Positions 4,802-33,240 of a stretch of 64,000 bases of DNA are shown in pieces. A program made the translations under genes and the position numbers. The notes beneath the pieces are model-generated. The model saw only the letters and a list, made by a program, of their open reading frames with translations, was not told the DNA's origin and ran no database searches. Source of the DNA: Bacteroidota bacterium (lineage in GTDB: Bacteria > Bacteroidota > Bacteroidia > 2-12-FULL-35-15); contig JANYDQ010000157.1 of the NCBI GenBank assembly GCA_025363555.1, positions 2,247 through 66,246 of the forward strand. The letters run 5' to 3'. Numbering within the stretch: the first letter of the stretch is position 1; each line of letters begins with the position of its first letter.

Positions 4802-5001
4802 GTTGATTGATTTTAGATTGCCATGTTGAATTATTTTGATTTTTAATCTCCTCAGAAAACAAAGGCTCAATTCTGCGAGGTTAAAGTTATATATATATTA
4901 CTGTAAAAATGGAAAAGGTTGCCTGGGTTTTGAAAATAAATTTTAATTCCATTGTTTATAAATCTCTTTTTTTTTCTCTTATAATTCTTATTCAGGCTGT
5001 T

Positions 5002-7755: not shown

Positions 7756-7848
7756 GGTATTTTGGTTTTAATTATTTGTAAATATAAATTTAATAATTGA
7801 TAAATATTGACTATGTATTGAAAAAACATGTTGTTAATTAAATCATAT

Positions 7849-9618: not shown

Positions 9619-9655
9619 AGCATTTAGGTTTTAAAATTAATTTTAATTATTGTTA

Positions 9656-12600: not shown

Positions 12601-12673
12601 GAATAGTAACCAATTGTGGTTTTGCAATTATACTTATCAGTAAAAGTGCAATTAATGTAATTGTTTTTTTCAT
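9656..12673 (-). CDS. Leucine-rich-repeat T9SS cargo protein (~25 x 22-aa LRRs)
   Basis: Signal peptide MKKTITLIALLLISIIAKPQ. Repeats of L.xL.C.xN.L.SLP.LP.S with 66-bp DNA periodicity across 11.3-12.4 kb. The C-terminal sorting domain is ~80% identical to that of the 7849-9618 gene. Confidence 0.8.
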   Translation of the reverse strand: MKKTITLIALLLISIIAKPQLVTIPDAHFVLWLQTHYPICITGNQLDTTCSSLSTVTDIDVTRDSISDLTGINYFTHLIHLYCGYNLIHTIPALPGSLTYFSCDSNQLVSLPPLPNSLTFISCEFNHLTSLPVLPLSLDTLMCDRNNITIIPALPGSVKFLNCYQNQLTSIVSLDSSLTTLICYNNLLPSLPPLDSALLILNCSSNQLTSLPALPNGLTDLRCYSNQLPVLPALDTALNYLDCSTNYLDSLPALPNSLVTLNCSNNPLGTLPALDNSLSALTCSNDSLTILPALPASLNFLNCSANYLPTLPALPNALTDLNCDNNILPSLPALPNSLGTLSCRNNQLPTLPALGTSLATIYCDNNAITSFPSFNSSLSYLSCNNNQLTTFPAFPASLNYLSCTNNLIATFPAMNNSLSELWCSNNQITSFSVMSSSLSKLYCSNNPLITLPSLPAGLSELNCETDQLTGLPTLPNGLSYLWCDNNSISCFPVFPFSIADSSHFNISNNPFTCFPNYIPAMTWAMLATPLCGAGNVSGCASASGILGFVYKDSLSNCVKDSTDHIYINVPLKCYDSGNNLLSQTYTAINGIYDFPDTTGTYTVKIDTADVPYTYQCANPGVDSTVVLTSANSLVQDVNFDIICKPGFDAGTQSVVTYGLIFPGQAHEVRIVAGDMSHWYHMHCAAGVSGQVKVTVTGPVIYNGIASGALTPTIVNNVYTYPVSNFDNINNTTDFGLQFTTNPFAQNGDVICINVQVSPASGDNDSTNNNYNYCYYVHNSYDPNLKETYPEQVPERSQDYFTYTVHFQNTGTAPAMNIRLLDTLDAKLDLSTFQLINYSHANVVSLTGRLLTFNFHNINLPDSTTDFAGSQGFVQYRIKPIANLLGGTRILNKASIYFDFNPPVSTNTSVNTFTRSIVTSATNQLAMENGEFNIYPNPASDNITINYTSSLKNYTINIYDVMGSLVKTMICKSASATIPVGEFTSGIYLLNVKDGNHSSVKRFIKN

Positions 12674-18048: not shown

Positions 18049-18660
18049 ATGAAAAAAACAATAACTCTAATTTTATCTGCCGTTACTATGTTTTCGGCAA
18101 ATGCAACCATTCGCACTATTACTTGTCAGGACAGTCCTTCCCATTTTTTACCTGTTACGCTAAATGCTGCGGTTGGGGATACCATACACTGGACATGGAT
18201 TGCAGGTGATCACGTGGTGGGTCCGGTAAACTCATCTTTTATACCAACCGGTGCCGCTATGTTTAATGTACCAATTGATATGAGCAATCATTCTTTCAAT
18301 TATGTGGTAACAGTTGCGGGAAACTATCATTATGTTTGCCACCCGGCTTCTCCTCACGGGGAAGATGGTTACATTGTGGTTTCAGGTACTGCTGGAGTTG
18401 CGAATTATACCACTTTGAATACTCTTTTTTCAATTTATCCTAATCCTTCCAGCGGAAATTTTCAATTTTCAATTTCAGATTTAACGTTTACTTCAAATTG
18501 TAAAGTGGTGATTTATAACATACATGGACAAGTTATTTATACTTCGGAAATTACAAATTCACAATCGGAAATTGATTTGAGTACAGAAACAAAAGGGCTT
18601 TATTTTTTAGAATATTTTAATGGAGAATCAATTCTTACTAAAAAAATAGCGATACAATAA
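18049..18660 (+). CDS. Cupredoxin-like (plastocyanin/azurin-fold) protein with T9SS C-terminal sorting domain
   Basis: 'GDTIHWTW..GDHVV...GNYHYVCHPASPHG..G.IVV' fits the cupredoxin pattern with His/Cys/His ligands. The axial Met appears to be absent. C-terminus 'FSIYPNPSSGNFQF...GLYFLEY..KKIAIQ'. Confidence 0.65.
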   Translation: MKKTITLILSAVTMFSANATIRTITCQDSPSHFLPVTLNAAVGDTIHWTWIAGDHVVGPVNSSFIPTGAAMFNVPIDMSNHSFNYVVTVAGNYHYVCHPASPHGEDGYIVVSGTAGVANYTTLNTLFSIYPNPSSGNFQFSISDLTFTSNCKVVIYNIHGQVIYTSEITNSQSEIDLSTETKGLYFLEYFNGESILTKKIAIQ

Positions 18661-18698
18661 ATAAACAAAATCAACTAACAACTAACAATAAAACAAAA

Positions 18699-20954
18699 AT
18701 GAAAAAAACAATTACCCTTTTAACCGCTTTGATGTTCATAATAGTGATTTCCAAAGCACAAACCAATTACCTCGATTCGTATATAGGTAATTCACCTACC
18801 ATGACTGTTATTGCAACAAGTGCGAACCAGTTAAATATGCCACAGGATTTAGACTTTAAACCCGGCACCAATGAATTATGGGTTTGCCAGTATGGAGATG
18901 CAACGGGAGGATCCATGGATATTTTTTACAATGCAGGAATGAGTTCACAAACAAACCAGTTAAGGCACGATTCTCACGCTGACCATTTTTATTATTATCC
19001 AAGTGCCATCGCATTTAGTAACATAGGTGAATTAGCGAACACCAACGAAATACAAAACACCTCTTCCTCTTCTACCACTTTTATGGGTCCTGCCCTTTGG
19101 CTGGCTGATACTGCAATTTTTGCAAACATTTGGCAGGGAGGATGGTCAAATGGATACCCTTTGGGAAGTCATATTGATATGCTGCACCAAAGTCCGTTTT
19201 CAATGGGAATTGCCTGGGACAGCGCAAAAGCATATTGGGTGATGGATGGCTATAATGGTAATATCTGCAAATATGATTTTGTGAACGATCACAGTCCCGG
19301 TTATGACAATCATTCCGCAGGGAAGATATGGCGTTATTCGGATGTTACGGTTACCCGTGTGCCCCAGGTGCCAAGCCACATGGTGCTTGATAAAACAAAC
19401 GGATGGCTTTATTTTATTGATGGCGGAAGCAAAAAAGTAAAAAGAATGAATGTAAATAATGGGGTGATTTCGGGAACTCTTACCGTGCCAAGCACAGCAA
19501 ATGAAAGCCTAGCCGGATATTGGAATGTGTTGGGAAGCACCGTTCAAACATTGGATTCGTTAACTACTCAACCGTGCGGAATGGATTATTATAATGGAAG
19601 ATTGGTTGTTTCTGATTATACTAATGGAAACATTTATTTGTATAACACAGCAGGTACGTTTTCTATACTTGATACTATTGTTACCGGGCACCCCGGAATG
19701 ATGGGCGTTAAGATTGGTAACGATGGGCACATCTGGTGCGTAAATAAAACAGAAAATAAAATTTACCGGTTGGATGTTGCTTTACCTGCGCTTGATGCAG
19801 CAATTGTAAAAATTACTTCTCCTAATGTAGTACCTTTTTTAAGTAAATATTATTCTGTTATTTTTGATGTTTGCAGCGGAACTATCACCCCTTCTGTTGA
19901 TGTAAAAAACACAGGAAGTACTGCAATTACAAGTATGGAAATCCACTACTCCATTGATGGTGGCACACATACTGTTTATAGCTGGAACGGTTCGTTAGCA
20001 TCCGGCAGCACCACCTCTGTGGCTTTGCCAAATGGTGCAATAACTTATGGTGCTCATCGGTTAGATGTAATGATTATGATGGTGAACGGTATGGCTGATG
20101 ATGTGGAGATGAACAACAACATGATGGGTTCTTTCAGGGCATTTACTCCGGTTCAGAATTTGCCATTTACAGAGAATTTTAATGTTACCTCTTTCCCACC
20201 GCCAAACTGGAGTTATGTACATTTTAATACCAATGATTTTATGAGCCATTCTGCGGCAGGAGGTTTTGGAAACAGTACGGGCAGCATGATGATGAATAAT
20301 TATTCCGGAACTACTGATATTACAGGGCAAAAAGATTACCTGATGTCTCCATTGCTTAATTTCACTTCTATTTCAAGCAATACTTACCTGCACTTTGATG
20401 TTGCCTACGCTCAATATAATACTTCAAGCGTGGATGAGTTAAAAATATTAGCGTCTTCCGATTGCGGAAACAGCTGGACCCAGGTATATGACAAATCAGG
20501 TGCTGCCCTTTCTACTGCTCCTCCCGCAACAGCTGCATTCTCGCCCACTTCTTCACAATGGAGAACCGATAACAGTATAAATCTGAATTCATTTTCGGGG
20601 CAAAGCGAAGTAATGTTTATGTTTACTTCTATCAGCAATTTCGGAAATAATTTTTTTATAGATAACATTGGCATCGGAGCTTATAACTTAGGGATAAACG
20701 AAACTGACAATTCTGTTTCGTTTAGCGTATTTCCAAATCCGGCAACGGAAGAAGTTACCGTTGAATTTTCAACGTTAGCTACTTCAAAAATAATTGTTAC
20801 TGATATTTTGGGTAAAAATATTTTTTCGCAAGAAATTCCTTTTGGTCAGAAAAGTGTTCAGTTAAATACATCTTTATGGGATAACGGATTTTATTTTGTT
20901 ACCGTGAAATCAGGCATTGACACGGGCACACAAAAGTTGGTTGTTGAAAAATAA
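18699..20954 (+). CDS. T9SS cargo protein, unknown function (propeller-like N-terminal region, CARDB-like middle)
   Basis: Signal peptide MKKTITLLTALMFIIVISKAQ. C-terminus 'VFPNPATEEVTVEF...NGFYFVTV..KLVVEK'. Confidence 0.7.
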   Translation: MKKTITLLTALMFIIVISKAQTNYLDSYIGNSPTMTVIATSANQLNMPQDLDFKPGTNELWVCQYGDATGGSMDIFYNAGMSSQTNQLRHDSHADHFYYYPSAIAFSNIGELANTNEIQNTSSSSTTFMGPALWLADTAIFANIWQGGWSNGYPLGSHIDMLHQSPFSMGIAWDSAKAYWVMDGYNGNICKYDFVNDHSPGYDNHSAGKIWRYSDVTVTRVPQVPSHMVLDKTNGWLYFIDGGSKKVKRMNVNNGVISGTLTVPSTANESLAGYWNVLGSTVQTLDSLTTQPCGMDYYNGRLVVSDYTNGNIYLYNTAGTFSILDTIVTGHPGMMGVKIGNDGHIWCVNKTENKIYRLDVALPALDAAIVKITSPNVVPFLSKYYSVIFDVCSGTITPSVDVKNTGSTAITSMEIHYSIDGGTHTVYSWNGSLASGSTTSVALPNGAITYGAHRLDVMIMMVNGMADDVEMNNNMMGSFRAFTPVQNLPFTENFNVTSFPPPNWSYVHFNTNDFMSHSAAGGFGNSTGSMMMNNYSGTTDITGQKDYLMSPLLNFTSISSNTYLHFDVAYAQYNTSSVDELKILASSDCGNSWTQVYDKSGAALSTAPPATAAFSPTSSQWRTDNSINLNSFSGQSEVMFMFTSISNFGNNFFIDNIGIGAYNLGINETDNSVSFSVFPNPATEEVTVEFSTLATSKIIVTDILGKNIFSQEIPFGQKSVQLNTSLWDNGFYFVTVKSGIDTGTQKLVVEK

Positions 20955-21617: not shown

Positions 21618-21824
21618 ATGAAAAAAATAGTGAGTGTGTTAATTATTTCGGCAATGGTGTTTGTGTCATGCACTAATACTGATAAGCCGGAAAGGAAAAC
21701 CATAGGTGCTGCAACTGATACGGCAACGCTGTATCAATGCCCAATGCATCCTGAAGTAACAAGTACCAAACCCGATACGTGTAGTAAATGTGGCATGGAT
21801 TTGGACAAAGTGGAGAAGAAGTAA
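21618..21824 (+). CDS. Small secreted heavy-metal-binding-domain protein (YQCPMHPEV...CSKCGMDL)
   Basis: 68 aa with a signal peptide. Carries the C-P-M-H-P and CxxCGM motifs, which are the same module found at the N-termini of the adaptor at 32056 and the MCO at 38133. Confidence 0.7.
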   Translation: MKKIVSVLIISAMVFVSCTNTDKPERKTIGAATDTATLYQCPMHPEVTSTKPDTCSKCGMDLDKVEKK

Positions 21825-21846: not shown

Positions 21847-22407
21847 ATGAAAAAAATAATCATTTTAATGGGTGTAATAATAATTACAACATTAAGCGCA
21901 AATGCACAAAAAAAACACGAACATAAAAGTAAGGCAGAAACAAGTGTTGTGCCGGTGTTTGATAAACCAAATGCAGATGTACAAACACAAATTAATAATT
22001 TACTAATAGTGTATTATAAAATGAAAGATGCCCTTGTTGCAGACAAAGATGCAGATGCAATGGCTGCTGCTAAAGAATTTAGGAAAGCACTTGAAAAGGT
22101 GGATATGAATAAAATGACGAGCGCGGAACATACTTACTATATGGATTTGCAAACCAAACTGGATTATGATGCGGAGCATATAAGCGGAGCGCCAAACATT
22201 GAGCATATCAGGGAGCATTTTGAAACCCTCTCTGTTAATATGTTTGCTCTTGTGAAAGCATTTAAAGCGAATGACGGAAAGGCGGTTTACTATGATTATT
22301 GCCCGATGAAAAAGGCAAGCTGGATAAGCAATGGGGAGGAAATAAAAAATCCATACTATGGTAAAAAGATGATGGACTGCGGGAGTGTGAAGGATAGTAT
22401 AAAATAA
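21847..22407 (+). CDS. DUF3347-like secreted protein (C-terminal 'YYDYCPMKKASWIS...KNPYYG..M..CG')
   Basis: Start taken at the MKKIIILMGVIIITTLSANAQ signal peptide (the ORF track starts earlier, at 21790). The C-terminal CPM motif and His-rich N-terminus match DUF3347 as recalled. Confidence 0.65.
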   Translation: MKKIIILMGVIIITTLSANAQKKHEHKSKAETSVVPVFDKPNADVQTQINNLLIVYYKMKDALVADKDADAMAAAKEFRKALEKVDMNKMTSAEHTYYMDLQTKLDYDAEHISGAPNIEHIREHFETLSVNMFALVKAFKANDGKAVYYDYCPMKKASWISNGEEIKNPYYGKKMMDCGSVKDSIK

Positions 22408-22634
22408 ATTTAATTGAAAGGTATTGACATAATAAAAACGTGTGAATAATGGAAGTTGTTTTATAAGTTGTGTAACTTTTAATGCTTTAAAAATATTGAC
22501 TTTTGTATTCAGTGAAAAGTAAGGTGTCTTACTGGAAAACAGAAATATGATAAATATCATAGTATGAATTGACAGAAATCATATTTTATGATTGGAAAAC
22601 AAATAATTTTGTGATGAAATTTTAATTTAATAAT

Positions 22635-22667
22635 CGGGCGACAGAGAAACTGAAGAACGGGTGACAG
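22635..22667. promoter_or_regulatory. Direct repeat CGGGCGACAG / CGGGTGACAG (23 bp apart) about 35 bp upstream of the Met-rich gene
   Basis: GC-rich 10-mers in an otherwise AT-rich intergenic region. The spacing is about two helical turns. Confidence 0.35.
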
Positions 22668-22700
22668 CGTTACTGAAAAAAAATAAAAATAATAATTATT

Positions 22701-23051
22701 ATGAAAAACAAAAAATCAATTTCAGCAATTTTAGCTACAATGCTAATGCTGGTAGTATGCTTTACAGCAAGTAATTCTTTTGCACAAACGAAAACTGCAC
22801 CTGCAACAATGAAAGATTGTTGTATGATGAAGGACGGAAAAATGATGCAAATGAAAGATGGAAAAATGATGCCGATGGACAAAGAAATGACAATGAAAAA
22901 TGGAACGAAGTGTATGGTTAATGGTGAATGTATTATGAAAGACGGAAAAAAAATGAAGATGAAAGAAGGTGATTGTATGGATATGGATGGCAAAATGGAC
23001 AAATGTTCAATGATGAACAAAGACGCTAAAGGTTCAACAGAAAAGAAATAG
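22701..23051 (+). CDS. Secreted methionine-rich repeat protein (MKDGKMM repeats plus Cys), putative Cu(I)-binding periplasmic protein
   Basis: Signal peptide MKNKKSISAILATMLMLVVCFTASNSFAQ. The mature region of ~85 aa has more than 20 Met arranged in MxM/MM motifs and 6 Cys. An internal DNA repeat is present. Confidence 0.65.
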   Translation: MKNKKSISAILATMLMLVVCFTASNSFAQTKTAPATMKDCCMMKDGKMMQMKDGKMMPMDKEMTMKNGTKCMVNGECIMKDGKKMKMKEGDCMDMDGKMDKCSMMNKDAKGSTEKK

Positions 23052-23113
23052 CGAAAGTAAGAGTATAATAAGGATTCTGTAATTTTATTGAAAGTTGCAG
23101 AATCCTTTTATCT

Positions 23114-23602
23114 TTGAATAAAATGAAAACAAAATCTAAAAGTATCTTCATTGCATCAACGCCTGAAAAAGTGTTTCAGCAGATGGATGATTTTTCTAAA
23201 ACCGGAATGCATATGACTGAAAGTTCGATGATGATGGGAAGTAAATTGAAGTTGGAACAACTTTCTGCGAATGCAAGCGGTGTAGGTCCTAAATACAGGT
23301 GGTATGGTAAAATGATGGGTATGGTAATGGATTTCAGCGAAACGGTTATGAAGTGGCAACCTCCTGTAATTAAGGAATGGGAGATAGTGGGGGAGGCAAA
23401 AATTATTATAATGTCGTGGTACAGGATGTGGTTTGAAATTTCTCCTGATGAAAATGGAACGGTTGCAAAAATTTCTATCAGTTATTTGCCTCCAAAGGAA
23501 TGGTATTATAAAATTCTTTCTTTCTTTTTTGCAAACTGGTATTGTAACTGGTGTTTGAATAATATGCTAAGTGATACAAAAAGTGCACTGGAAAATAAAT
23601 GA
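23114..23602 (+). CDS. SRPBCC (START/Bet v 1-like) domain protein, hypothetical
   Basis: 162 aa with no signal peptide. Its stop overlaps the next gene's start (ATGA at 23599-23602). Confidence 0.45.
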   Translation: MNKMKTKSKSIFIASTPEKVFQQMDDFSKTGMHMTESSMMMGSKLKLEQLSANASGVGPKYRWYGKMMGMVMDFSETVMKWQPPVIKEWEIVGEAKIIIMSWYRMWFEISPDENGTVAKISISYLPPKEWYYKILSFFFANWYCNWCLNNMLSDTKSALENK

Positions 23603-26346
23603 TAAGCAGAATTCGGCAAATGCAATTTTATAGCCAACCTATTGATTCCATTATTGAGTACTTTAAAAGTGATTCCAAGGAAGGGCTTTCTTATCAGGAC
23701 ATTGAATTTAACAGAAAAAAGTGGGGAAATAATGTCTTAAAGGAATCAAATAAAAGGAGTATTTGGGTAACTCTGTACGGGCAATTTACTGATTTGCTTG
23801 TTGTCATTTTCATTTGCGCGGGGGTGCTCGATTTCTATTTGGGACAAACCAGGGATGGTACTGTGTTAATTGCTATTGTTGTTTCTAATGCATTGATTGG
23901 GTTTTACCAGGAACTGAAAGCAGAAAATATTCTTGCATCGTTGAAAAAATTAGTTGTTGAAAAATGTAAAGTTTTAAGAGATGGAAAAACAGTTGAAATA
24001 TTGGTTGAAGATATTGTGGCGGGAGATGTAGTGAAATTATTTGAAGGGGATGGTGTTCCTGCGGATATTCGCCTTATTAAGTCAAATGGATTTTCAGCTA
24101 ATGAATTTATTCTAACTGGCGAATCGTTGCCTTCTGAAAAGGATTATGATTTTATTACTGATAAAACACTTCCTGTTTCGGAAATTAAGAATTGTGCATT
24201 TATGGGAACTACTGTTGCAAGAGGTGAAGCAACTGGAATTGTGTATGCAACGGGAATGCAAACGGAAATAGGCAAGATAAGTGCCACTTCAAAGAAAATT
24301 AAAACAGATTTAACTCCTGTGCAGGTTGAAGCGGCAGATGTAGCAAAAAAAGTAATGTGGGGTACGATAATAATTGCTGTTCCGCTTTTCGCAACACGAA
24401 TGATTTTGCACGATTCGATATTAGTAGCAGTTATTTTTACTATTGGTGTTGCCGCGGCAATGGTACCAGAAGGACTTCCTGCCCAAATATCAACCGCATT
24501 GGCATTAGGTGTGAGACGACTTGCGAAAAATAATGCGATTGTAAAAAGAATCTCGGCAGTAGAAACACTTGGTTCTGCAACAGTAATAGCTTCGGACAAA
24601 ACAGGAACAATTACAAGAAACGAAATGACGATAACCAATTGTTATTTTAATGGCAGTGAATATAGTGTTTCGGGGCTTGGATATGCTCCTTTCGGAGAGA
24701 TTGTATCAAAGGATAGGAGGCATCTTAATAAATCTGATATAGAAGAAGTGAAAGTCTTTTTTCTTTCAGGTTATCTTTCTTCAACGGGAAAAATTAATCC
24801 GCCTGACAAATACCACCCAACCTGGCATTGCATTGGAGACCCTACCGAATCATCGTTTGCAACACTTGCTATGAAAGCTGGTTTTACTTTGGAGGAAATT
24901 AATAATGAATATTCGATTGTTAAATCATTTGGATTTGATTCAATAAGAAAAAGGGCTTCAATTATCAGGAAACATAATGGCAAAACTATATCTTTTGTAA
25001 AAGGAGCAATTGAATCAATACTTGATGTATGTGATAAAATAATAATTAATGGTGAAATAAATGTGTTGGGCGAAGCAGAAAAAAAACAATTGCTTTCTAA
25101 TTCTACAGCGTACGCAATGAATTCGTTGCGAATAATTGCACTTGCTCATAAAGAACTTCAGGAAAAAGAATTTAATATTGATGATGCTGAACGTAACTTA
25201 ACTTTTGCTGGTTTTGTAACAATGCTCGACCCGCCTCACGAGGAGGTGAAAAGTGCAATAGAATCTGTATTCAAAGCACATATAAAAGTGTTTATGATTA
25301 CAGGTGATAATGAAATTACCGCCAATGCTATTGCTAAAAACATAGGGTTAATGAATGAGAACAATGAGTTTCCGAAAGTGATTAATAGTACATCATTAGC
25401 CGCAATGAGTGATGAACATTTAAAAGAAGTTTTCAAAAAAAGGGCGGTTGTATTTTCAAGAGTATCGCCTGATGATAAATTCAGGATAGTAGATTTATTG
25501 AAAAAGCAAGGTGAAATAGTTGCAGTAACTGGTGACGGTGTAAATGATACACTGAGTTTAAAGAGAGCAGACATTGGTGTGGCAATGGGTTTGAACGGCT
25601 CTAAAGTTGCGCAGGAAGCCGCCACCATAATTTTATTGGATGATAATTTCTCCACCATCGCACTTGCGGTTAAAGAAGGAAGAATTATTTTCAGGAATAT
25701 TGAAAAGACAGTAATAACAAATTTATCTTCTAATATTGCGGAGTTGATTTGCGTACTTGCAGGATTTGTCGGGGCTTTTTTCGGTATTGCCACCCCATTG
25801 TTAGTAATACAGATATTGGCAATGGATATGCTCGGTGAAATGTTTCCGCTGATGATGCTGACTTACGACCCGCCTGAAGAAACAATTATGGAAGACGCAC
25901 CGAGAAACCCAAAAGATAAAATACTTTCTAAGCAAGTGCTGAAAGGAATTATAGTAAGGGGTGCAGTGATGGGCTTTGCGGCTTATGGAGCGTTCCTTGC
26001 AGAATATTTTCATAATCATCATTTATCTAATCATTATGAAAAGGCCACCACTGTAACTTATGTTTCAATTCTTTTTGGACAAATTGCAAATATTCTTTCA
26101 AGAAGAACAAAAGGAAGTGTGTGGAGTAAATATTTATTTTCCAATCTTTATTTATGGGGTGCAATAGCATTGTCAATGGTTTTTATGTTGTTGATAGTTT
26201 ATGTTCCATTTTTGAATTTGTATTTTCATACCTCCTCATTATATTTGGTGGATTGGTTATTTCCAATCGCAGTATTTACGATATGTTTAATATCGTATGA
26301 ATATATGAAGAAATTTAATAGCAAGAAAAAAATAACATTGTTATAA
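23599..26346 (+). CDS. P-type cation-transporting ATPase, P2-type (Ca2+/Mg2+ family; PEGLPA motif, no CPx)
   Basis: DKTGTIT phosphorylation site, TGDGVNDTLSLKRADIGVAMG, the N-terminal 'Cation_ATPase_N'-like region, and 'MVPEGLPA' in TM4. Confidence 0.85.
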   Translation: MISRIRQMQFYSQPIDSIIEYFKSDSKEGLSYQDIEFNRKKWGNNVLKESNKRSIWVTLYGQFTDLLVVIFICAGVLDFYLGQTRDGTVLIAIVVSNALIGFYQELKAENILASLKKLVVEKCKVLRDGKTVEILVEDIVAGDVVKLFEGDGVPADIRLIKSNGFSANEFILTGESLPSEKDYDFITDKTLPVSEIKNCAFMGTTVARGEATGIVYATGMQTEIGKISATSKKIKTDLTPVQVEAADVAKKVMWGTIIIAVPLFATRMILHDSILVAVIFTIGVAAAMVPEGLPAQISTALALGVRRLAKNNAIVKRISAVETLGSATVIASDKTGTITRNEMTITNCYFNGSEYSVSGLGYAPFGEIVSKDRRHLNKSDIEEVKVFFLSGYLSSTGKINPPDKYHPTWHCIGDPTESSFATLAMKAGFTLEEINNEYSIVKSFGFDSIRKRASIIRKHNGKTISFVKGAIESILDVCDKIIINGEINVLGEAEKKQLLSNSTAYAMNSLRIIALAHKELQEKEFNIDDAERNLTFAGFVTMLDPPHEEVKSAIESVFKAHIKVFMITGDNEITANAIAKNIGLMNENNEFPKVINSTSLAAMSDEHLKEVFKKRAVVFSRVSPDDKFRIVDLLKKQGEIVAVTGDGVNDTLSLKRADIGVAMGLNGSKVAQEAATIILLDDNFSTIALAVKEGRIIFRNIEKTVITNLSSNIAELICVLAGFVGAFFGIATPLLVIQILAMDMLGEMFPLMMLTYDPPEETIMEDAPRNPKDKILSKQVLKGIIVRGAVMGFAAYGAFLAEYFHNHHLSNHYEKATTVTYVSILFGQIANILSRRTKGSVWSKYLFSNLYLWGAIALSMVFMLLIVYVPFLNLYFHTSSLYLVDWLFPIAVFTICLISYEYMKKFNSKKKITLL

Positions 26347-26358
26347 AGAAAAACAAAA

Positions 26359-27636
26359 ATGGTAAAGAAACTAATCGAAATAGCATTACGTAACAGGTTT
26401 ATAGTACTTGTGGTAGCGGCAGGATTGTTCGGATGGGGTATTTATAGTGTAAAAAATAATCCTGTAGATGCTATTCCTGACTTGTCGGAAAATCAGGTTA
26501 TCGTATTTACTGAATGGATGGGTCGCAGTCCGCAGATAATTGAAGACCAAATAACTTATCCGCTTGTAAGTAATTTGCAGGGGATTCCAAAAATAAAAAA
26601 TATACGAGGTACATCAATGTTCGGGATGAGCTTTGTATATGTAATTTTTGAAGATAATGTTGATATATATTGGGCAAGGACTCGCGTAACTGAACGGTTG
26701 AACTTTGCTCAACGGTTGTTGCCGCAAGGTGTTGTACCTTCACTGGGACCTGATGGAACCGGAGTAGGTCACGTTTTTTGGTACACACTGGATGCACCAA
26801 AAATGGATTTGGGCGAACAACGTGCTTTGCAGGATTGGTACATTAAGTTCGGCTTGCAAACTGTAAACGGTGTTGCGGAAGTTGCATCATTCGGTGGTTT
26901 TGAAAAACAGTACCAATTGGTTATTGACCCTTTGAAATTGCAATATTATAAATTATCAATGATGGATGTGATGCACGCTGTGCAGGATAATAATAATGAT
27001 GTAGGCGGAAGAAAATTTGAGATGAGCGATATGGCTTATATTATACGTGGACTTGGTTATATAAAAACAAAAGAAGATTTGGAAGGGATTGCGGTGATTA
27101 ATAATAATGGCATTCCAGTAAGAGTAAAAGATATTGCATCTGTGCAAATGGGTGGTGATTTGAGACTTGGTATTTTTGATGAAAATGGCGGGGGAGAAAA
27201 AGTAGGTGGAATAGTGGTTATGCGGTATGGAGAAAATGCAGACAGGGTAATAAATGCAGTAAAGGAAAAGATGAAAGATTTAGTAAAGGGACTACCGGAG
27301 GGGGTGAAATTCCATACTGCTTATGACAGGAGCAAATTGATTGAAGAAGCAATCGGTTCGGTAAAAGAAACATTGATTGAAGTATTAATTACAGTTTCAT
27401 TAGTAGTGATAATATTTCTATTTCATTGGCGAAGCGCATTAATAATTTTGATTCAACTGCCAATATCTGTAGCGGTAAGTTTTATTTTCCTTCAGGCATT
27501 CGGACTTTCATCTAATATAATGTCGTTAACAGGTATAGCACTGGCAATAGGTGTGGTGGTAGATGATGGTATAGTAATGGTGGAAAATGCGTATCGGCAT
27601 CTATCTGAAGAACAATTAAAAAGAAAGGAAAAATGA
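26359..27636 (+). CDS. CusA/CzcA-family heavy-metal RND efflux pump, N-terminal portion (TM1, periplasmic loop 1, TM2-4) of a split gene
   Basis: 'MVKKLIEIALRNRFIVLVVAAGLFGWGIYS' and '...VVVDDGIVMVENAYRHL' are CusA hallmarks. The ORF ends with an ATGA overlap into the next ORF. Confidence 0.8.
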   Translation: MVKKLIEIALRNRFIVLVVAAGLFGWGIYSVKNNPVDAIPDLSENQVIVFTEWMGRSPQIIEDQITYPLVSNLQGIPKIKNIRGTSMFGMSFVYVIFEDNVDIYWARTRVTERLNFAQRLLPQGVVPSLGPDGTGVGHVFWYTLDAPKMDLGEQRALQDWYIKFGLQTVNGVAEVASFGGFEKQYQLVIDPLKLQYYKLSMMDVMHAVQDNNNDVGGRKFEMSDMAYIIRGLGYIKTKEDLEGIAVINNNGIPVRVKDIASVQMGGDLRLGIFDENGGGEKVGGIVVMRYGENADRVINAVKEKMKDLVKGLPEGVKFHTAYDRSKLIEEAIGSVKETLIEVLITVSLVVIIFLFHWRSALIILIQLPISVAVSFIFLQAFGLSSNIMSLTGIALAIGVVVDDGIVMVENAYRHLSEEQLKRKEK

Positions 27637-29549
27637 GTAATTGGTTTAAAAGAAAACCCGACCTTCTTTCTTCCGAAGAAAGACTAACAATAATTGAAAA
27701 GGCAGCGAAACAAGTTGGCCCGGGAGTGTTTTTTTCAAATATTGTTGTAATAATATCTTTTTTACCTGTTTTCTTACTTACGGGGATGGAAGGGAAATTA
27801 TTCAGTCCTTTGGCGTGGACAAAAACATTTATTCTGTTGGTTGATGCGTTTCTTGCTGTTACTCTTGCTCCTGTTTTGATTTCATTTTTTCTGAAAGGTA
27901 ATTTGAAACCCGAAGGAGCAAACCCAATAGTAAGGGGGTTGGAAAAAGTTTATAAACCTGTTCTGAAATTATGTTTGAACTGGAGAAAGACAACTATTGT
28001 TGTAAATATAATTGCTCTCGTGTTTGCTATCTTTATATTTTCACGATTGGGGTCTGAATTTATGCCACCGCTTGATGAAGGCTCTATTTTATTTATGCCT
28101 GTAACATTACCTGATATTTCAAACTCAGAAGCAAAAAGGCTTTTGCAAGTGCAGGATAAAATTATTAAATCTCTACCCGAAGTTGAAAATGTTTTGGGTA
28201 AGGCAGGGAGAGCGAACACCGCTACTGACAATTCACCCATAAGTATGATTGAAACTGTAATACTTTTGAAACCAAAAACTGAATGGCGAAAAGGTTTTAC
28301 AAAAGACAGCATTATTAATGAATTAAATACTAAGCTTCAAATTCCCGGAATAACAAACGGGTGGACACAACCGATTATTAACCGTATTAATATGCTTTCG
28401 ACAGGAATAAGGACTGATGTAGGAGTTAAAGTTTATGGACAAAACCTTGATACTATATTTTCTTTTTCACAAAAGCTTAAAAAAAGTATAGAAGATATTG
28501 CGGGCATCCAGGATTTATATGTAGAGCCTATTACAGGAGGAAGGTATATTGATATTGTAATTAAAAGAGAAGAAATTGGACGTTACGGGCTTACGGTAAA
28601 TGATGTTAATTCAGTTATAGAAACTGCATTGGGTGGAATGAAACTGACTACTACGATTGAAGGCAGGCAGCGGTTTTCAATTAATGCGCGTTATGGGGAG
28701 GACTTTAGAAACAACCTGACTGCATTAAATCAACTACAAGTTCAGACTATGAATTACGGCCCCATTCCACTCTCTGCTGTTGCGGATATTAAATTATGGG
28801 AAGGACCGCCAATGATAAATTCGGAAAATGCTTTATTGAGAGGAACAATATTATTTAATGTAAGAGGAAGAGATTTAGGCAGCACTGTAACTGAGGCACA
28901 GAAAAAATTAAGTATGATGATTAATAAAATGCCAAAAGGATATTTTATAGAATGGAGTGGGCAATGGGAAAACCAGTTAAGGGCAAATAAAACATTAAAA
29001 CTTATTATGCCTGTTGTTCTTATTTTTATATTCTTTGTTCTCTATTTCACTTATCATTCGGCTAAAGAAGCTATTCTTACAATGATAACTGTTCCATTTG
29101 GATTGATAGGAGGGGTTGTAATGGTTTATTTGTATGACATAAATCTTTCTGTTGCAGTTGCTGTTGGTTTTATTGCTTTATTTGGTATGGCTGTGGAGCT
29201 TGCTATGTTGATGACCATATATCTTAATGAAGCGATGCAAAAATTGGTAAACGATAAAGGAAATTCCAGAGAAACTATATCTACTGATGATTTAAGAGAG
29301 TATATAATAATTGGTGCAACTAAAAGGCTTCGCCCTGTTATTATGACTGTTTCGGTTTCCTTGTTTGGTCTAATTCCTATTTTGTGGGCAACAGGAGTTG
29401 GGAGCGATGTAATGCGCCCGATTACAATTCCTCTTTTGGGAGGGACTATTAGTACAATAGTATTTGTAATGTTCGTAACACCAATAGTACTTGAAATGAC
29501 AAAGGAAAGGGAACTAAAACGCAATGGTAAAATCACTTTAATAGAATGA
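27633..29549 (+). CDS. CusA/CzcA-family heavy-metal RND efflux pump, C-terminal portion (TM5-12, periplasmic loop 2)
   Basis: Continues the CusA alignment ('IIEKAAKQVGPGVFFSNIVVIISFLPVFLLTGMEGKLF'). The two ORFs sum to 1063 aa, about one full CusA. Confidence 0.8.
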   Translation: MSNWFKRKPDLLSSEERLTIIEKAAKQVGPGVFFSNIVVIISFLPVFLLTGMEGKLFSPLAWTKTFILLVDAFLAVTLAPVLISFFLKGNLKPEGANPIVRGLEKVYKPVLKLCLNWRKTTIVVNIIALVFAIFIFSRLGSEFMPPLDEGSILFMPVTLPDISNSEAKRLLQVQDKIIKSLPEVENVLGKAGRANTATDNSPISMIETVILLKPKTEWRKGFTKDSIINELNTKLQIPGITNGWTQPIINRINMLSTGIRTDVGVKVYGQNLDTIFSFSQKLKKSIEDIAGIQDLYVEPITGGRYIDIVIKREEIGRYGLTVNDVNSVIETALGGMKLTTTIEGRQRFSINARYGEDFRNNLTALNQLQVQTMNYGPIPLSAVADIKLWEGPPMINSENALLRGTILFNVRGRDLGSTVTEAQKKLSMMINKMPKGYFIEWSGQWENQLRANKTLKLIMPVVLIFIFFVLYFTYHSAKEAILTMITVPFGLIGGVVMVYLYDINLSVAVAVGFIALFGMAVELAMLMTIYLNEAMQKLVNDKGNSRETISTDDLREYIIIGATKRLRPVIMTVSVSLFGLIPILWATGVGSDVMRPITIPLLGGTISTIVFVMFVTPIVLEMTKERELKRNGKITLIE

Positions 29550-30808
29550 GGAAAACAATATTGACATTTGTATTTGTATTTGTATTCTCTTTATTTTATG
29601 TCAAGGCGCAACGAATGAATATTGATTCTATTCTTTCTGCCATTGACAAACAACATCCTTCAGTAAAAATGTTTGATGCAGATATTGCATCTATGAACGC
29701 TGCTGCCAAAGGAGCGCGAAGCTGGATGCCTCCCGAAGTGGGAGCGGGTTTCTGGATGACACCCTATAACCCGATGATGTGGAAAGCGGATGCAGAAAAT
29801 AATTACAGTGGTATGGGGTCGTTTATGGTTTCGGCTCAACAAATGTTTCCAAATAGAAAACAACAGGATGCTAATTCTGCTTATATGAGTGCAATGTCGT
29901 CAGTGGAAGTGCAAAATAAAAATACTACGCTGAATGATTTATATGCAGAGGCAAGGAAAAATTATTTTGAGTGGGTGGTGTTGAAAAAGAAATCAGCAAT
30001 TATAGAACAGGATTCTGTATTGCTTACCTATATGATTGCTGATGCGGAATTGCGGTTTAAAAATAATATGGAAAAACTTAGTGCTTATTATAAAGCAAAA
30101 GCAGCACTTGGTAATTTGCAAAATATGAAACTGATGGTGCTGAATGAAATGAAGCAAAAACAAATTGCATTAAATACTTTGATGAATAGAAAGGTTACTA
30201 CTTCATTTGATATTGATAGTACTTATCATTTAAAAGATTATTCTGTTTATCATTTTGACAGTACTTTGTTTTCAACAAACCGAACTGATATTATTGCGAT
30301 AGACAAAAATATTACTCTTAACCAACTTCACCTGAAACTGGAGAAAGCGAATTTAAAGCCACAGTTCGGGGTGCGTTATGATAATATGTTTGCGTTTGGG
30401 ACACAGCCTTACCAGTTCTCTTTAATGGGAATGGTGAAAATTCCTATTGCTCCCTGGTCGTCAAAAATGAGCAAAGCAACTATTGAAAGTTTGAAATTAA
30501 AAAATGAGGCATTGCAAAGTGAAAAACAAATGATGATTAATGAATCGAATGGTATGGCAAGTTCGATGTTGAATATGATTGAAACAAAAAAGAAACAAAT
30601 TAAATTATATGAAACTAATATTATTCCTGCTTTAAAAAACAATTACAAAACTATGGAGTTGGGTTATGAGCAAAATACAGAAGAGTTGTTTATGTTGTAT
30701 GATGCGTGGGAATCATTAAATATGACACAACTTGATTATTTAGACCAGTTGCAACAATTATTAACAATGCAAACAGAACTGGATAAAATTCTCCAATTGA
30801 AAAAATGA
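29546..30808 (+). CDS. TolC-family outer membrane efflux protein (CusC-like)
   Basis: Signal peptide present. 420 aa with coiled-coil heptads typical of the outer membrane efflux protein family. Both ends have ATGA overlaps with neighbouring genes. Confidence 0.75.
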   Translation: MRKTILTFVFVFVFSLFYVKAQRMNIDSILSAIDKQHPSVKMFDADIASMNAAAKGARSWMPPEVGAGFWMTPYNPMMWKADAENNYSGMGSFMVSAQQMFPNRKQQDANSAYMSAMSSVEVQNKNTTLNDLYAEARKNYFEWVVLKKKSAIIEQDSVLLTYMIADAELRFKNNMEKLSAYYKAKAALGNLQNMKLMVLNEMKQKQIALNTLMNRKVTTSFDIDSTYHLKDYSVYHFDSTLFSTNRTDIIAIDKNITLNQLHLKLEKANLKPQFGVRYDNMFAFGTQPYQFSLMGMVKIPIAPWSSKMSKATIESLKLKNEALQSEKQMMINESNGMASSMLNMIETKKKQIKLYETNIIPALKNNYKTMELGYEQNTEELFMLYDAWESLNMTQLDYLDQLQQLLTMQTELDKILQLKK

Positions 30809-32052
30809 AAACAATAAAAGAAATATTGAATTCATTTTTTGTTTTGTTTTTTGCAATGCAACTGATTTCCTGTGGGCAAAATGAAAAGTCTTCAAGGCAA
30901 GATACTATAAATGATATGCAGGGTATGGATATGGGTGATAAAAAAACAAAGCAAGATACAATGCCAGATATGGATATGGGAGATAAAAAAGAAAAGAGTG
31001 AACTTGTAAACCGTCCGTCTGCAACTATTTCATTGAATGATGTGATTAAACCAACAAATAAATTTGTGCTTACTTCTTTACCACTTACAACATTACAACA
31101 ACTAACAAATAAAGTTGATTTGCAATTTTATGGAATTGTAAATTATAATGAAAAAGATGCAGAAATAATTTCTTCGCGTGTGTCGGGAAGGATTGATAAG
31201 CTATATTTAAAATATCGTTTTGAAAGTATTTCAAAAGGAGAAAAGTTAATGGAAATATACAGTCCCGAATTGGTAACAGCACAACAGGATTTACTTTTTA
31301 TTTTAAATAATGATGCCGGAAATAATTCGCTTATTGAATCAGCAAAACAAAAACTACTGTTACTTGGAATGAATGAAATGCAGTTAAATGAGCTTATACA
31401 TAAGAAAACCATTAAGAATACGATTACTATTTACAGTAATTACTATGGACATATTCACGAATCGGGAGAAAAGGCTTCAATGAATAATATGGAACCTGTA
31501 ATGAATACTGCTAGCGAAATTACACAACCTCTTTCATTAAAAGAAGGAATGTATGTTACCAAAGGACAGCAGTTATTTATGATTTACAACCCTGACAATG
31601 CGTGGATTCTTGCAAACGTATTTCCTGAACAACAACCTTATGTTCATAAAGGAGATGTTGTATATGTGAGTTCGGGTACTGATTCCTCCAATCTATTTTC
31701 AGGGAAGATTGATTTTATAGAGCCTCAATATAGGGATGGAAACAAAACATTAACTGTGAGAATTAATTTTGATAATGCTTCTTTAAAATTTCCGATTGGC
31801 GGCAGGGTGAAAGTAGAAGAAAAAAATATAGCTATAAGTGGTGCGTGGCTTGCTACTTCCAGCATTCTTTCTCTTGGAAAAGATAAGGTGGTTTTTGTGA
31901 AATCAGGGAATGGTTTTGTTGCAAGAAAAATTAATGTGAACTATTCAACTTTGGAAAAATCTCTTGTGAATGGTGATTTTTCTTCAAAAGATTCAGTTGT
32001 TCTTAATGCTCAATATTTAATTGACAGTGAAAGTTTCATTAAAGTAAAATAA
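30805..32052 (+). CDS. Efflux RND periplasmic adaptor (CusB-like) with lipoprotein signal and Met-rich tandem N-terminal repeat
   Basis: 'LISCGQ' lipobox, a 'DMQGMDMGDKK...MPDMDMGDKK' repeat, and a biotinyl-lipoyl plus beta-barrel adaptor core. Confidence 0.8.
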   Translation: MKTIKEILNSFFVLFFAMQLISCGQNEKSSRQDTINDMQGMDMGDKKTKQDTMPDMDMGDKKEKSELVNRPSATISLNDVIKPTNKFVLTSLPLTTLQQLTNKVDLQFYGIVNYNEKDAEIISSRVSGRIDKLYLKYRFESISKGEKLMEIYSPELVTAQQDLLFILNNDAGNNSLIESAKQKLLLLGMNEMQLNELIHKKTIKNTITIYSNYYGHIHESGEKASMNNMEPVMNTASEITQPLSLKEGMYVTKGQQLFMIYNPDNAWILANVFPEQQPYVHKGDVVYVSSGTDSSNLFSGKIDFIEPQYRDGNKTLTVRINFDNASLKFPIGGRVKVEEKNIAISGAWLATSSILSLGKDKVVFVKSGNGFVARKINVNYSTLEKSLVNGDFSSKDSVVLNAQYLIDSESFIKVK

Positions 32053-32055
32053 AAA

Positions 32056-33240
32056 ATGCTGCGTTATCTTTTCCTAATTTCATTTTTGTTTTTTGTTGGT
32101 TGCAAACCTAAAAACATTAAACAGGTAACTGAAAATAAAGTTTATTATACCTGTTCAATGCACCCACAGGTGAGGAAAGACAAGCCAGGGAAATGCCCTA
32201 TTTGTGGAATGGAATTGCATCCTGTAAGTATTCAGAAAAATATTTTATCAGATGAAATTTATTTGAATGAACAACAAATTCTGTTGGGAAATATTAAAGC
32301 AGACACACTTCATACTGAAAATATTGGTGAAGCTACTACTCTTGTTGCGACAGTAAATACGAATACTGATAATACAAGTTCTATAAGTTCGAGGGTGATG
32401 GGAAAAATTGAAAAACTTTATTTCAAGACCAAAGGTGATTATATTAATAAAGGTGATAAACTTTATGACATTAACAGCGAAGACTTAAATATAGCGAAAC
32501 AGCAATATTTACTTGCCTTGGAGAAAACAAAACAACCGCACAATGATTTTGTTGATGCAAAGCAATTAATTGAATCTGCAAAAAACAAATTGCTTTTGTA
32601 TGGAATTAGTGAGGAACAATTAAAAGATATTTCATCGTTTCCTGTAACAACTATATCAAGTTTGGCAAGCGGATATATTATAGAGTTGGCAACTAAAGAA
32701 GGTGATTATATTATGCAGGGTGCTGTTGTTTTTAAAATTGCAAACCTTACTACTTTATGGGTGGAAGCACAGGTTTACCCAACACAATTGAAAGACATTT
32801 ATAAAAATGCAGAAGCTATTGTTACATTTCCTGATTTTTCTGACAAATCATTTACAGGCAAAATTGATTTTATAAATCCTGAATTAAACAGCGGAACGCA
32901 ACTTGATTTAATTCGTGTGGAAATTCCAAACAAAGATTTATTGATAAAACCCGGAATGGCTGCAATAGTGAATTTAAAACATCATCTTCACAAAGCATTT
33001 GCTTTGCCTGTTGATGCTGTTATTCGTGATAGTAAAGGGGCAATTGTATGGGTACAAACTTCATCAAATACATTCAAAAGCCGAATGATAAAAACAGGAA
33101 TTGAATCGGGAGATAAGATTGAAATCATTTCTGGAATAATGGAAGGTGATGTAATTGTAACAAGCGGAGCATACTTACTTAATAGCGAATATATATTCAA
33201 GAAAGGTAAAAACAGTAGTATGGAAGGAATGAAAATGTAA
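32056..33240 (+). CDS. Efflux RND periplasmic adaptor (CusB-like) with N-terminal CxxC heavy-metal-binding domain
   Basis: 'YYTCSMHPQVRKDKPGKCPICGMEL' N-terminal module followed by an adaptor core. Confidence 0.8.
   Translation: MLRYLFLISFLFFVGCKPKNIKQVTENKVYYTCSMHPQVRKDKPGKCPICGMELHPVSIQKNILSDEIYLNEQQILLGNIKADTLHTENIGEATTLVATVNTNTDNTSSISSRVMGKIEKLYFKTKGDYINKGDKLYDINSEDLNIAKQQYLLALEKTKQPHNDFVDAKQLIESAKNKLLLYGISEEQLKDISSFPVTTISSLASGYIIELATKEGDYIMQGAVVFKIANLTTLWVEAQVYPTQLKDIYKNAEAIVTFPDFSDKSFTGKIDFINPELNSGTQLDLIRVEIPNKDLLIKPGMAAIVNLKHHLHKAFALPVDAVIRDSKGAIVWVQTSSNTFKSRMIKTGIESGDKIEIISGIMEGDVIVTSGAYLLNSEYIFKKGKNSSMEGMKM

Follow-up and report, generated by a model that had tools for sequence, protein, structure and literature searches.

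The 64-kb stretch of DNA analysed here (the window, taken at its full length) carries at 22701-23051 a small gene for a methionine-rich protein and, directly before it, two short GC-rich repeats. The locus raises the question of what such a protein does and whether the repeats belong to its regulation. An original prediction took the product for an exported copper sponge or chaperone, built as a (M-K-D-G-K-M-M)n array, and the repeats for a regulator-binding site. Our analysis favours, with somewhat better than even confidence, a periplasmic binder of Cu(I) or Ag(I) whose messenger RNA (mRNA) would carry a cis-regulatory RNA of a copper regulon. The features of the gene and its leader are as follows (nt, nucleotides; aa, amino acids):

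22635-22657, + strand: motif unit 1, CGGGCGACAGAGAAACTGAAGAA (weight matrix score 32.2 bits; pairs 1:12, 5:21 and 8-10:16-18 kept)
22658-22680, + strand: motif unit 2, CGGGTGACAGCGTTACTGAAAAA (weight matrix score 31.5 bits; all proposed pairs kept, including a compensated U5:A21)
22681-22700, + strand: A-rich 20-nt linker from the last unit to the start codon
22701-23051, + strand: gene for a Met/Cys-rich DUF6799-family protein of 116 aa, stop codon included
22701-22784, + strand: predicted signal peptide (Sec, signal peptidase I), aa 1-28, cleaved between SFA and Q (invariant Q29, Q-rule, predicted helix at aa 5-27)
22812-22997, + strand: DUF6799 domain, aa 38-99, a predicted beta-hairpin meander (hmmscan; AlphaFold core all beta, pLDDT 80-88)
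23070-23107, + strand: terminator-like hairpin 3' of the gene (17-pair stem, then a T-rich tail)

A conserved 23-nt motif upstream of the gene

The two 10-mers that were first noticed, CGGGCGACAG at 22635-22644 and CGGGTGACAG at 22658-22667, lie exactly where they had been reported, 23 nt apart, with the last ending 33 nt before the ATG. These are the only exact copies in the window, in which the 10-mer is also not above chance at one mismatch (3 found, 1.5 expected). In the 130 nt before each homologous gene, however, the 10-mers turn out to be the 5' ends of 23-nt units with the consensus CGGGYAACAGCGNAACTGAAGAA, which abut head to tail. Among 80 related loci, which came from a scan of one genome per species, the consensus pattern with up to 6 mismatches located 139 units before the DUF6799 gene in 76. 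Judged across loci, the repeats are thus far from a chance occurrence. The search for further copies that had been proposed at the outset was empty for exact 10-mers in the window and productive for the 23-nt unit before the homologous genes. A weight matrix derived from those units picked out 195 in 1.07 Mb of sequence (the window and 88 loci), all but 2 of which (193) lie on the gene strand, while the reversed-sequence control gave 0; within the 64 kb of the window, no copy of at least 5 bits was found besides 22635-22657 and 22658-22680. Of the 107 clusters that the units form, 86 hold a pair, 20 a single unit and 1 a triplet. For every gene family that follows the motif, the last unit stands 17-26 nt (mode 19) before the ATG. 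On the upstream side, the first unit lies within 40 nt, and usually 5-12 nt, after the stop codon of a co-directional gene in 39 of the 107 clusters, such genes including those for an HMBD protein and a P1B ATPase.

Rfam 15 gave no relevant match at E up to 10 for window positions 22380-23150 and none at E up to 1 for five canonical loci, and the literature searched on copper riboswitches and Csp leader motifs held nothing that matches the element. The repeats are better described as two copies of a conserved 23-nt leader motif that is absent from Rfam 15 and from that literature; taken as an RNA element, the motif would be a new class in a kind of system already known.

Genes that follow the motif

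The original prediction would have lost ground had the repeats been found before no other metal gene; they also precede genes for Csp/DUF326, CopZ and HMBD proteins. In the 1.07-Mb set, the motif stands before 83 Met-rich DUF6799 genes, 10 genes for Cys-rich four-helix proteins (Csp/DUF326) and 5 CopZ genes. A motif-first scan of metagenome contigs, which removes the bias towards DUF6799, yielded 120 loci with 222 units in 131 clusters (0.70 Mb). Here the downstream genes were 36 Csp-like, 27 Met-rich DUF6799 and 5 CopZ genes, together with genes for small membrane SHOCT proteins, secreted proteins with tandem HMBDs, a beta-flower family, a DUF305 protein (the CopM family) and an HMBD-ATPase, and the spacing to the gene was always about 19-21 nt. 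The assignments were confirmed by Pfam.

Some of these genes belong to families that have no established copper role. A secreted beta-flower protein of 152-158 aa (PF21785) follows the motif in five loci (L091, L123, L158, L166 and L176), and small membrane SHOCT proteins that start with MHMYDGYHFWGMH follow it in seven (L117, L127, L143, L159, L162, L175 and L207). A DUF305 protein is found in the same position in L121 and a Met-rich lipoprotein with no Pfam match in L186. By their position behind the motif, the beta-flower, SHOCT, DUF305 and Met-rich lipoprotein genes are candidate new members of the copper regulon.

Covariation and proposed RNA structure

Mutual information was calculated over all 253 position pairs of 141 distinct units, with complementarity not assumed. 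The three strongest pairs were 5:21 (CG 88, UA 23, UG 16, AU 7, CA 4), 2:11 (GC 119, AU 12) and 1:12 (CG 101, UA 18, UG 12, CA 3), each above the maximum of 200 column shuffles; pair 10:16 was GC in 138 units and UA in 2. All four pairs thus covary in the Watson-Crick/G·U manner. In leaders with two units, mutual information reached 0.32 and 0.53 within units as against 0.003-0.03 between units, and shared ancestry alone is therefore not the explanation.

We propose that each unit folds in the mRNA as a mini H-type pseudoknot, about 20 nt before the AUG, in which stem 1 would pair positions 1-2 with 11-12 and stem 2 would join 8-10 to 16-18 and 5 to 21 on either side of an A6A7/A19A20 internal loop. 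The geometry is consistent with such a fold, as L1 would be G3G4, no nucleotide lies between the stems, which can stack, and L3 would be N13 A14 A15. When this structure was tested on a 60-sequence alignment, 96.8% of the cells were paired (90.6±0.5% in shuffles) and 53 cells carried double changes (13.2±2.9 in shuffles), neither value being reached by any of 500 shuffles, and slid controls paired at most 43% of the cells. In 63 new, unconstrained metagenome units, the same four pairs ranked as the top four, with 2:11 and 1:12 above the 95% null and 10:16 and 5:21 below it. The element thus displays what one would look for in a leader candidate, namely a structure backed by covariation, sense orientation and a position upstream of functionally related genes.

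The reading as a folded RNA has some drawbacks that should be considered. The thermodynamic signal is nil (z -0.57), the fold of about 6 pairs being too small, and stem 1 consists of two pairs only, of which 2:11 is a G·A mismatch in unit 1 of the window. RNAalifold favours a different, nested fold between units. Data of one kind served both to derive and to test the structure, although an independent set of units replicated it. In the start region, no alternative pairing came to light that could serve as an expression platform. A Bacteroidetes-type -7 box is not enriched upstream of the motif (9 of 135, versus 5.5±2.3 in shuffles). The one such box at the locus is therefore only a candidate promoter, and no transcription start is claimed:

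22604-22611, + strand: possible Bacteroidetes-type -7 box TAATTTTG, tentative, read from the sequence

This box matches TAnnTTTG, the -7 consensus of Bacteroidetes.

Several other accounts of the units were set aside. No covariation backs the nested fold between units, and L024 disrupts it while keeping the CAU/AUG pair within the unit. By inspection, an extracytoplasmic function (ECF) promoter (AAC-N17-CG) does not suit the units, as the "-35" positions 14-15 vary, and a sigma-54 promoter (GG-N10-GC) does not fit their spacing; a sigma-70-like promoter was likewise rejected on inspection. Loci with a single unit have no second half, and all three promoter readings would leave the covariation of Watson-Crick and G·U type unexplained.

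RNA element, DNA operator or constitutive module

That the repeats are conserved and, as we read them, functional agrees with the original prediction, which saw in them a dyad plausibly bound by a regulator; the unit is, however, 23 nt long, and its covariation points to a leader RNA rather than to a DNA operator. As DNA, the units would be operators for a copper-responsive direct-repeat regulator of the OmpR/PhoB, AraC or LytTR type, with the covarying positions as dyad half-sites. One to three direct repeats close to a gene start would suit such a regulator, the CAG/CTG and CG/CG pairings can equally be read as palindromes in DNA, a gene of the AraC type adjoins a copper ATPase in the related locus L086, and a sigma-70-like GTGACA-N18-AAAAAT overlaps unit 2. 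Yet combinations of the G·U type outnumber those of the C·A type by about 3:1 (49 versus 17, both sets of units summed), a bias that has meaning only for an RNA of the + strand. The centres of the two dyads overlap (stem 1 at about 6.5, stem 2 at about 13), as a pseudoknot would naturally have it but a protein dimer hardly would, and the distance of the element is fixed to the ATG, whereas its upstream side varies and is often a stop codon 5-12 nt away. The island of the window, moreover, contains no regulator gene. From the G·U excess, the overlapping centres of symmetry and the position fixed to the start codon, we consider it quite likely that the element acts as an RNA of the + strand, and unlikely that it is an operator.

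An RNA need not be a sensor. The element might be a constitutive module, such as a translational enhancer, a ribosome standby site, an mRNA stabiliser or a processing site, that raises the output of small, abundantly needed proteins in long operons. This would agree with the size of nearly all the proteins encoded behind it (about 40-220 aa), with its frequent position between co-directional genes of operon-like arrays, with the A-rich, unstructured leader that follows it and with the missing expression platform described above. A general enhancer should, however, also precede other highly expressed genes, while almost only copper-related genes follow the element in the 1.07 Mb of homologue-anchored and 0.70 Mb of motif-anchored loci, and the 64-kb window holds no further copy. 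We thus hold a purely constitutive module to be quite improbable. As the element also precedes Csp/DUF326, CopZ, HMBD, DUF305 and SHOCT genes, we read it instead as a common cis-regulatory RNA of a Bacteroidota copper regulon, which would act at translation initiation or on mRNA stability. Whether it couples expression to copper status is an even call. The boldest form of this reading, in which the tandem mini-pseudoknots would be a riboswitch that senses Cu(I), Ag(I) or a copper-thiol complex and turns on the translation of Met-rich DUF6799, Csp, CopZ and HMBD proteins, seems to us distinctly improbable.

The gene and its product

The open reading frame (ORF) at 22701-23051 encodes 116 aa, and the translation first given for it was exact. 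Compared with nine homologous genes, substitutions fall mostly on third codon positions; against the homologue in L003, the differences number 14, 8 and 42 at codon positions 1, 2 and 3, with 27 synonymous and 22 non-synonymous codon changes. This bias shows the + frame to be under purifying selection and the antisense ORF 22670-23020 to be an artefact, as had been supposed. Homologues at 60-82% identity among the best 120 also speak against a low-complexity artefact, and by these measures ORF 22701-23051 is a real gene. No remnant of an HMBD is visible past its stop codon, where only the terminator-like hairpin is found.

A signal peptide had been expected and is predicted at aa 1-28; the mature part from Gln29 is 88 aa long, rather than about 85. 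Gln29 is invariant in 23 of 23 sequences of the alignment, in which invariant Met, Gly, Lys, Asn and Thr columns are also present. The site SFA is of the A-x-A type with Gln exposed at +1, in keeping with the Bacteroidetes Q-rule for signal peptidase I substrates (PMC5837995, PMC10653852). As an invariant Gln after SFA fits this rule, the product is predicted to be exported, and to be periplasmic or at least extracytoplasmic. Cleavage as a lipoprotein at the conserved Cys20 is unlikely, as position -1 is Val, Cys20 itself is Ser in two homologues (P0092 and P0116), and Q29 is invariant.

The mature 88 aa comprise 20 Met, 20 Lys, 10 Asp, 8 Gly and 6 Cys, and only five of their apolar residues are other than Met. 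Met thus makes up 22.7% of the mature part, versus 2.9% in the long ORFs of the window. The repetition seen in the DNA is real but modest, with a 24-bp unit present in 1.9 copies at 22827-22872 and in a third copy at 22929 with 83% identity. At the protein level, the supposed heptad array gives way to one conserved 63-residue DUF6799 domain built from [KN][DNE]G beta-turns. The six Cys (40, 41, 71, 77, 92 and 102) are conserved at 90% or more in the alignment of homologues.

A Met/Cys-rich subfamily of DUF6799

The Pfam family DUF6799 (PF20606) matches the protein over its whole model (1-63 of 63) with E 2.4e-26 and 91.7 bits, the cut-off being 26.8 (hmmscan), and whole-library scans of Pfam and NCBIfam returned DUF6799 only, with no NCBIfam match added. 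The original prediction had thought of a standalone and uncharacterised protein. The literature searched indeed does not mention DUF6799 or PF20606, but the family is on record and the standalone form is the minority. Among 5.8 billion proteins we found 585 homologues, the best 120 of which align over nearly their full length, with a median of 18.7% Met and 6.5% Cys. A C-terminal HMBD (PF19335, YxCPMH...CPxCGM) is present in 97 of these 120 closest homologues, and the fusion of DUF6799 to an HMBD is the usual form of the subfamily; the window protein stops at aa 116, carries no HMBD and so does not have this architecture. In Flavitalea flava (L083, 10001-10459), a DUF6799 gene of 117 aa is followed 10 nt later by a separate HMBD ORF of 31 codons, an arrangement that resembles the usual fusion split in two.

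When 1.84 billion cluster representatives were searched exhaustively with HMMER, 1293 DUF6799 members were returned, many of them with 2-7 tandem domains and up to 626 aa long. The 63-residue domain, matched over its full length, is common to generic members and the window protein. Generic DUF6799 has V, L, I, Y or F at its alternating hydrophobic positions, few Cys and no HMBD, whereas in the subfamily of the window protein the same positions are nearly all Met and six Cys are added. Five generic proteins (P0121, P0122, P0126, P0170 and P0252) are arrays of 5-7 domains, 416-626 aa long, with ordinary hydrophobic residues. As such arrays exist, the base function of the family, to judge from its sequences, is probably not metal binding. 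By composition and domain match, the window protein is a member of a Met/Cys-substituted DUF6799 subfamily of copper islands, and thus a new member of a known, uncharacterised family.

Marginal similarity to CopK

When the family profile was run against all PDB sequences, its HMBD part matched the N-terminus of Legionella CopA (8ovl_A, E 1.5e-4; 3rfu_A) and its DUF6799 part matched CopK of Cupriavidus metallidurans (2k0q_A, E 0.062). The alignment sets the family's MMKDGKM-MVMKDGKTMPME--KDMTMKNGTKCMTNGECIM against VFKDGKMGMENKFGKSMNMPEGKVMETRDGTKIIMKGNEIF of CopK, with a local similarity of KDGKM..GK.M.MP..M..DGTK. In the reverse search, the full-length CopK query matched PF11525 end to end at 129 bits; the generic DUF6799 model came second to CopK's own family (E 9e-4) and, with 19.4 bits, fell short of its gathering score of 26.8. 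The hhalign probability for CopK versus the window family is 15%, and the CopK model (PF11525) does not match the window protein even at E up to 10. Marginal as it is, this is the one sequence similarity to a characterised protein that the window protein has.

CopK is described, in references cited by PMC4335983, as a copper-induced periplasmic protein that holds Cu(I) in a tetrathioether site. It resembles the window protein, as predicted here, in being small, all-beta, Met-rich, periplasmic and encoded in a copper-resistance cluster (C. metallidurans CH34), while the window protein differs in its six Cys, its far higher Met content, its occurrence in Bacteroidota and its relatives, which are usually fused to an HMBD. 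Given these alignments, CopK is the closest functional analogue and a possible distant relative, but not this protein's family. The ligands of CopK are presumably Met28, 38, 44 and 54, three of which would fall on Met that the family conserves or keeps invariant.

Proposed metal binding by the protein

The composition of the mature protein suggests that it binds Cu(I) or Ag(I) directly through Met thioethers, with or without Cys thiolates, and we regard such direct binding as likely; it would then buffer or relay periplasmic copper. Several points detract from this. The similarity to CopK is marginal and below the Pfam threshold, Foldseek retrieved neither CopK nor any other PDB fold, and the six Cys could be mere disulfides that stabilise a small domain.

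One could therefore also suppose that the protein itself binds no metal and is either a disulfide-stabilised scaffold or adaptor that presents or partners an HMBD, or a Met-rich sink for periplasmic oxidants. Generic DUF6799, with its arrays of 2-7 domains, is neither Met-rich nor linked to metal, and the six Cys are an even number and are lost together in the tandem-domain forms, both of which would suit such a role. However, Met occupies essentially every hydrophobic position only in the HMBD-fused, copper-island subfamily, which argues for selection of thioether ligands, and the similarity to CopK covers the positions of its presumed Cu(I) Met ligands. A protein that is no metal binder at all thus appears to us rather unlikely, and we return to the Cu(I)/Ag(I) binder as the preferred reading.

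Copper context in the window and in related loci

An exported, Met-rich protein tied to copper, as originally predicted, is well in line with the island in which the gene lies, which is of the cus/cop type, with the HMBD in 97 of the 120 closest homologues and with the synteny to CopB-type ATPase and oxidase genes. The copper genes of the island are the following:

21618-21824, + strand: separate gene for an HMBD lipoprotein, HMBD being the domain fused to most homologues (PF19335, E 2.9e-12)
26359-33240, + strand: CusCBA-like heavy-metal resistance-nodulation-division (RND) system (Pfam and NCBIfam matches)
33266-35284, + strand: CopB-type (P1B-3) copper P1B ATPase with no HMA (TIGR01511, 584 bits)
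38133-40727, + strand: multicopper oxidase with an N-terminal HMBD (Cu-oxidase domains and PF19335; TIGR01480-like)

The HMBD lipoprotein is encoded about 900 nt upstream of the Met-rich gene, and a DUF3347 protein is also encoded nearby. The CusCBA-like system consists of a split RND pump, an outer-membrane factor and two membrane-fusion proteins, one of them with an HMBD. A CPH transmembrane motif (IVICCPHALGLA) and a His-rich N-terminus (MEHEHTHNHSQHS...GHNHH) mark the P1B ATPase as CopB-like, and its orthologues, about 84% identical, stand right behind DUF6799-HMBD genes in many loci. Neither a regulator gene nor a CusF homologue was detected in the island.

The HMBD (PF19335) occurs three times in the island, in the lipoprotein (21618-21824), at the N-terminus of one CusB-like adaptor (32056-33240) and at the N-terminus of the oxidase (38133-40727), which suggests that it is a common module for periplasmic copper hand-off. 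Directly after the Met-rich gene, a weak SRPBCC-like ORF (23123-23602) overlaps the start of a 915-aa type-II-like P-type ATPase (23599-26346), which has Cation_ATPase_N/C domains and scores below every NCBIfam equivalog cut-off; this pair is kept in L005 and L009. The RND pump, of the CusA/CzcA type, is encoded as two ORFs, 26359-27636 (425 aa) and 27633-29549 (638 aa), which overlap in ATGA, and the same split point with stop codons is found in L016, L043, L048 and L055. As the split recurs, the pump looks, by its sequence, like a conserved and naturally split heavy-metal transporter rather than a frameshift error. Elsewhere in the window, many large proteins bearing C-terminal sorting domains for type IX secretion (SprB repeats, LRR, Kelch) are encoded at 1742-12673, 18049-20954, 35875-37062 and 52623-54893, and these place the window in Bacteroidota.

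The 80 related loci are all from Bacteroidota (Chitinophagales, Sphingobacteriales, Flavobacteriales, Cytophagales and Bacteroidales) except one labelled Bifidobacteriaceae, which is probably a mis-binned contig. The original prediction had called for a check on homologues and on co-occurrence with cus/cop loci; besides the 585 homologues, a copper ATPase, multicopper oxidase or RND gene was found in 39 of the 60 loci of at least 8 kb. All counts of neighbours in the loci should be taken as lower bounds, as only the window's own proteins were used as probes. A P1B ATPase, about 84% identical to that of the window, lies directly downstream of the DUF6799 gene in 12 of 67 loci and a multicopper oxidase in 3. 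Neighbourhoods annotated with Pfam contain CopZ-type HMA, Csp/DUF326, SHOCT, HMBD, multicopper oxidase and further P1B ATPases. In L084 (13238-15401), a tyrosine integrase gene and an HTH_17 (excisionase-like) gene flank a copper island with a DUF6799-HMBD gene; together with protein identities of 60-80% across orders, this is consistent with copper islands being mobile.

Proposed mechanism and significance

The analysis shows that the gene is real, belongs to DUF6799, has an export signal and lies among copper genes, and that the element before it is conserved, covaries and precedes genes for several unrelated copper-binding proteins. From there we infer that the protein binds metal, that the RNA folds in vivo, that expression responds to copper and that the signal is either a metal ion or a protein. 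In the mechanism that we propose, signal peptidase I would cleave the exported protein before Gln29, the new N-terminus probably turning into pyroglutamate. The mature protein would be a single DUF6799 beta-hairpin meander, with Met at nearly every hydrophobic position and six extra Cys, and would act as a periplasmic copper buffer or as a shuttle that links the Cu-exporting CopB-type ATPase with the CusCBA pump, the multicopper oxidase and the HMBD proteins encoded nearby.

If so, the subfamily of a Pfam DUF that is widespread in environmental Bacteroidota would gain a working function, that of a periplasmic Met-thioether binder of Cu(I)/Ag(I), which may replace CusF or CopK and may work with the equally uncharacterised HMBD. 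This would bear on how soil, freshwater and wastewater communities resist copper and silver. A leader RNA common to genes for copper storage, chaperone and periplasmic binder proteins would be a testable handle on their regulation, whether the RNA or a bound protein does the sensing. In the analysed genome of Bizionia argentinensis, another member of the phylum, no regulator has a conserved copper-binding site: the MerR- and CopY-like proteins are without the known copper sites of canonical CueR and CopY, and the copper ATPase genes do not adjoin a regulator gene (PMC11213822). This leaves room for unconventional copper control, perhaps phylum-wide.

Comparison with known systems

Among known RNAs, guanidine-II (mini-ykkC) and preQ1-I resemble the element in being very small units just upstream of a start codon. 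Mini-ykkC works as two tandem mini-units, and preQ1-I is a case in which a pseudoknot of about 30 nt makes up a whole aptamer. The units described here differ in their size of 21-23 nt, in their number of 1-3 copies and in having no sequence or model similarity to either (Rfam 15). The metal riboswitches (Mg, Mn yybP-ykoY, NiCo/czcD, Na, Li and fluoride) are likewise leader RNAs before metal-homeostasis genes and switch expression on under excess metal (PMC11672702), but none of them resembles the motif and none is known to sense copper or silver. The riboswitches listed in a 2024 review of metal sensing respond to Mg, Mn/Ca, Ni/Co/Fe, fluoride, Na, B12 and Moco, and none to copper (PMC11672702), and a paper on 224 candidate RNA motifs does not mention copper; the riboswitch reading, if true, would describe the first copper-sensing RNA.

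On the protein side, no model of the CusF, CopC/PcoC or PcoE/SilE families matched the window protein in the Pfam and NCBIfam scans, and the fold of these proteins, as of CopM, differs from that predicted for the window protein. By analogy, they would nonetheless share with it the proposed role of binding Cu(I)/Ag(I) through Met in an oxidising periplasm and handing it to CusCBA-type pumps or oxidases, the roles of periplasmic copper chaperones and buffers being summarised in PMC4335983.

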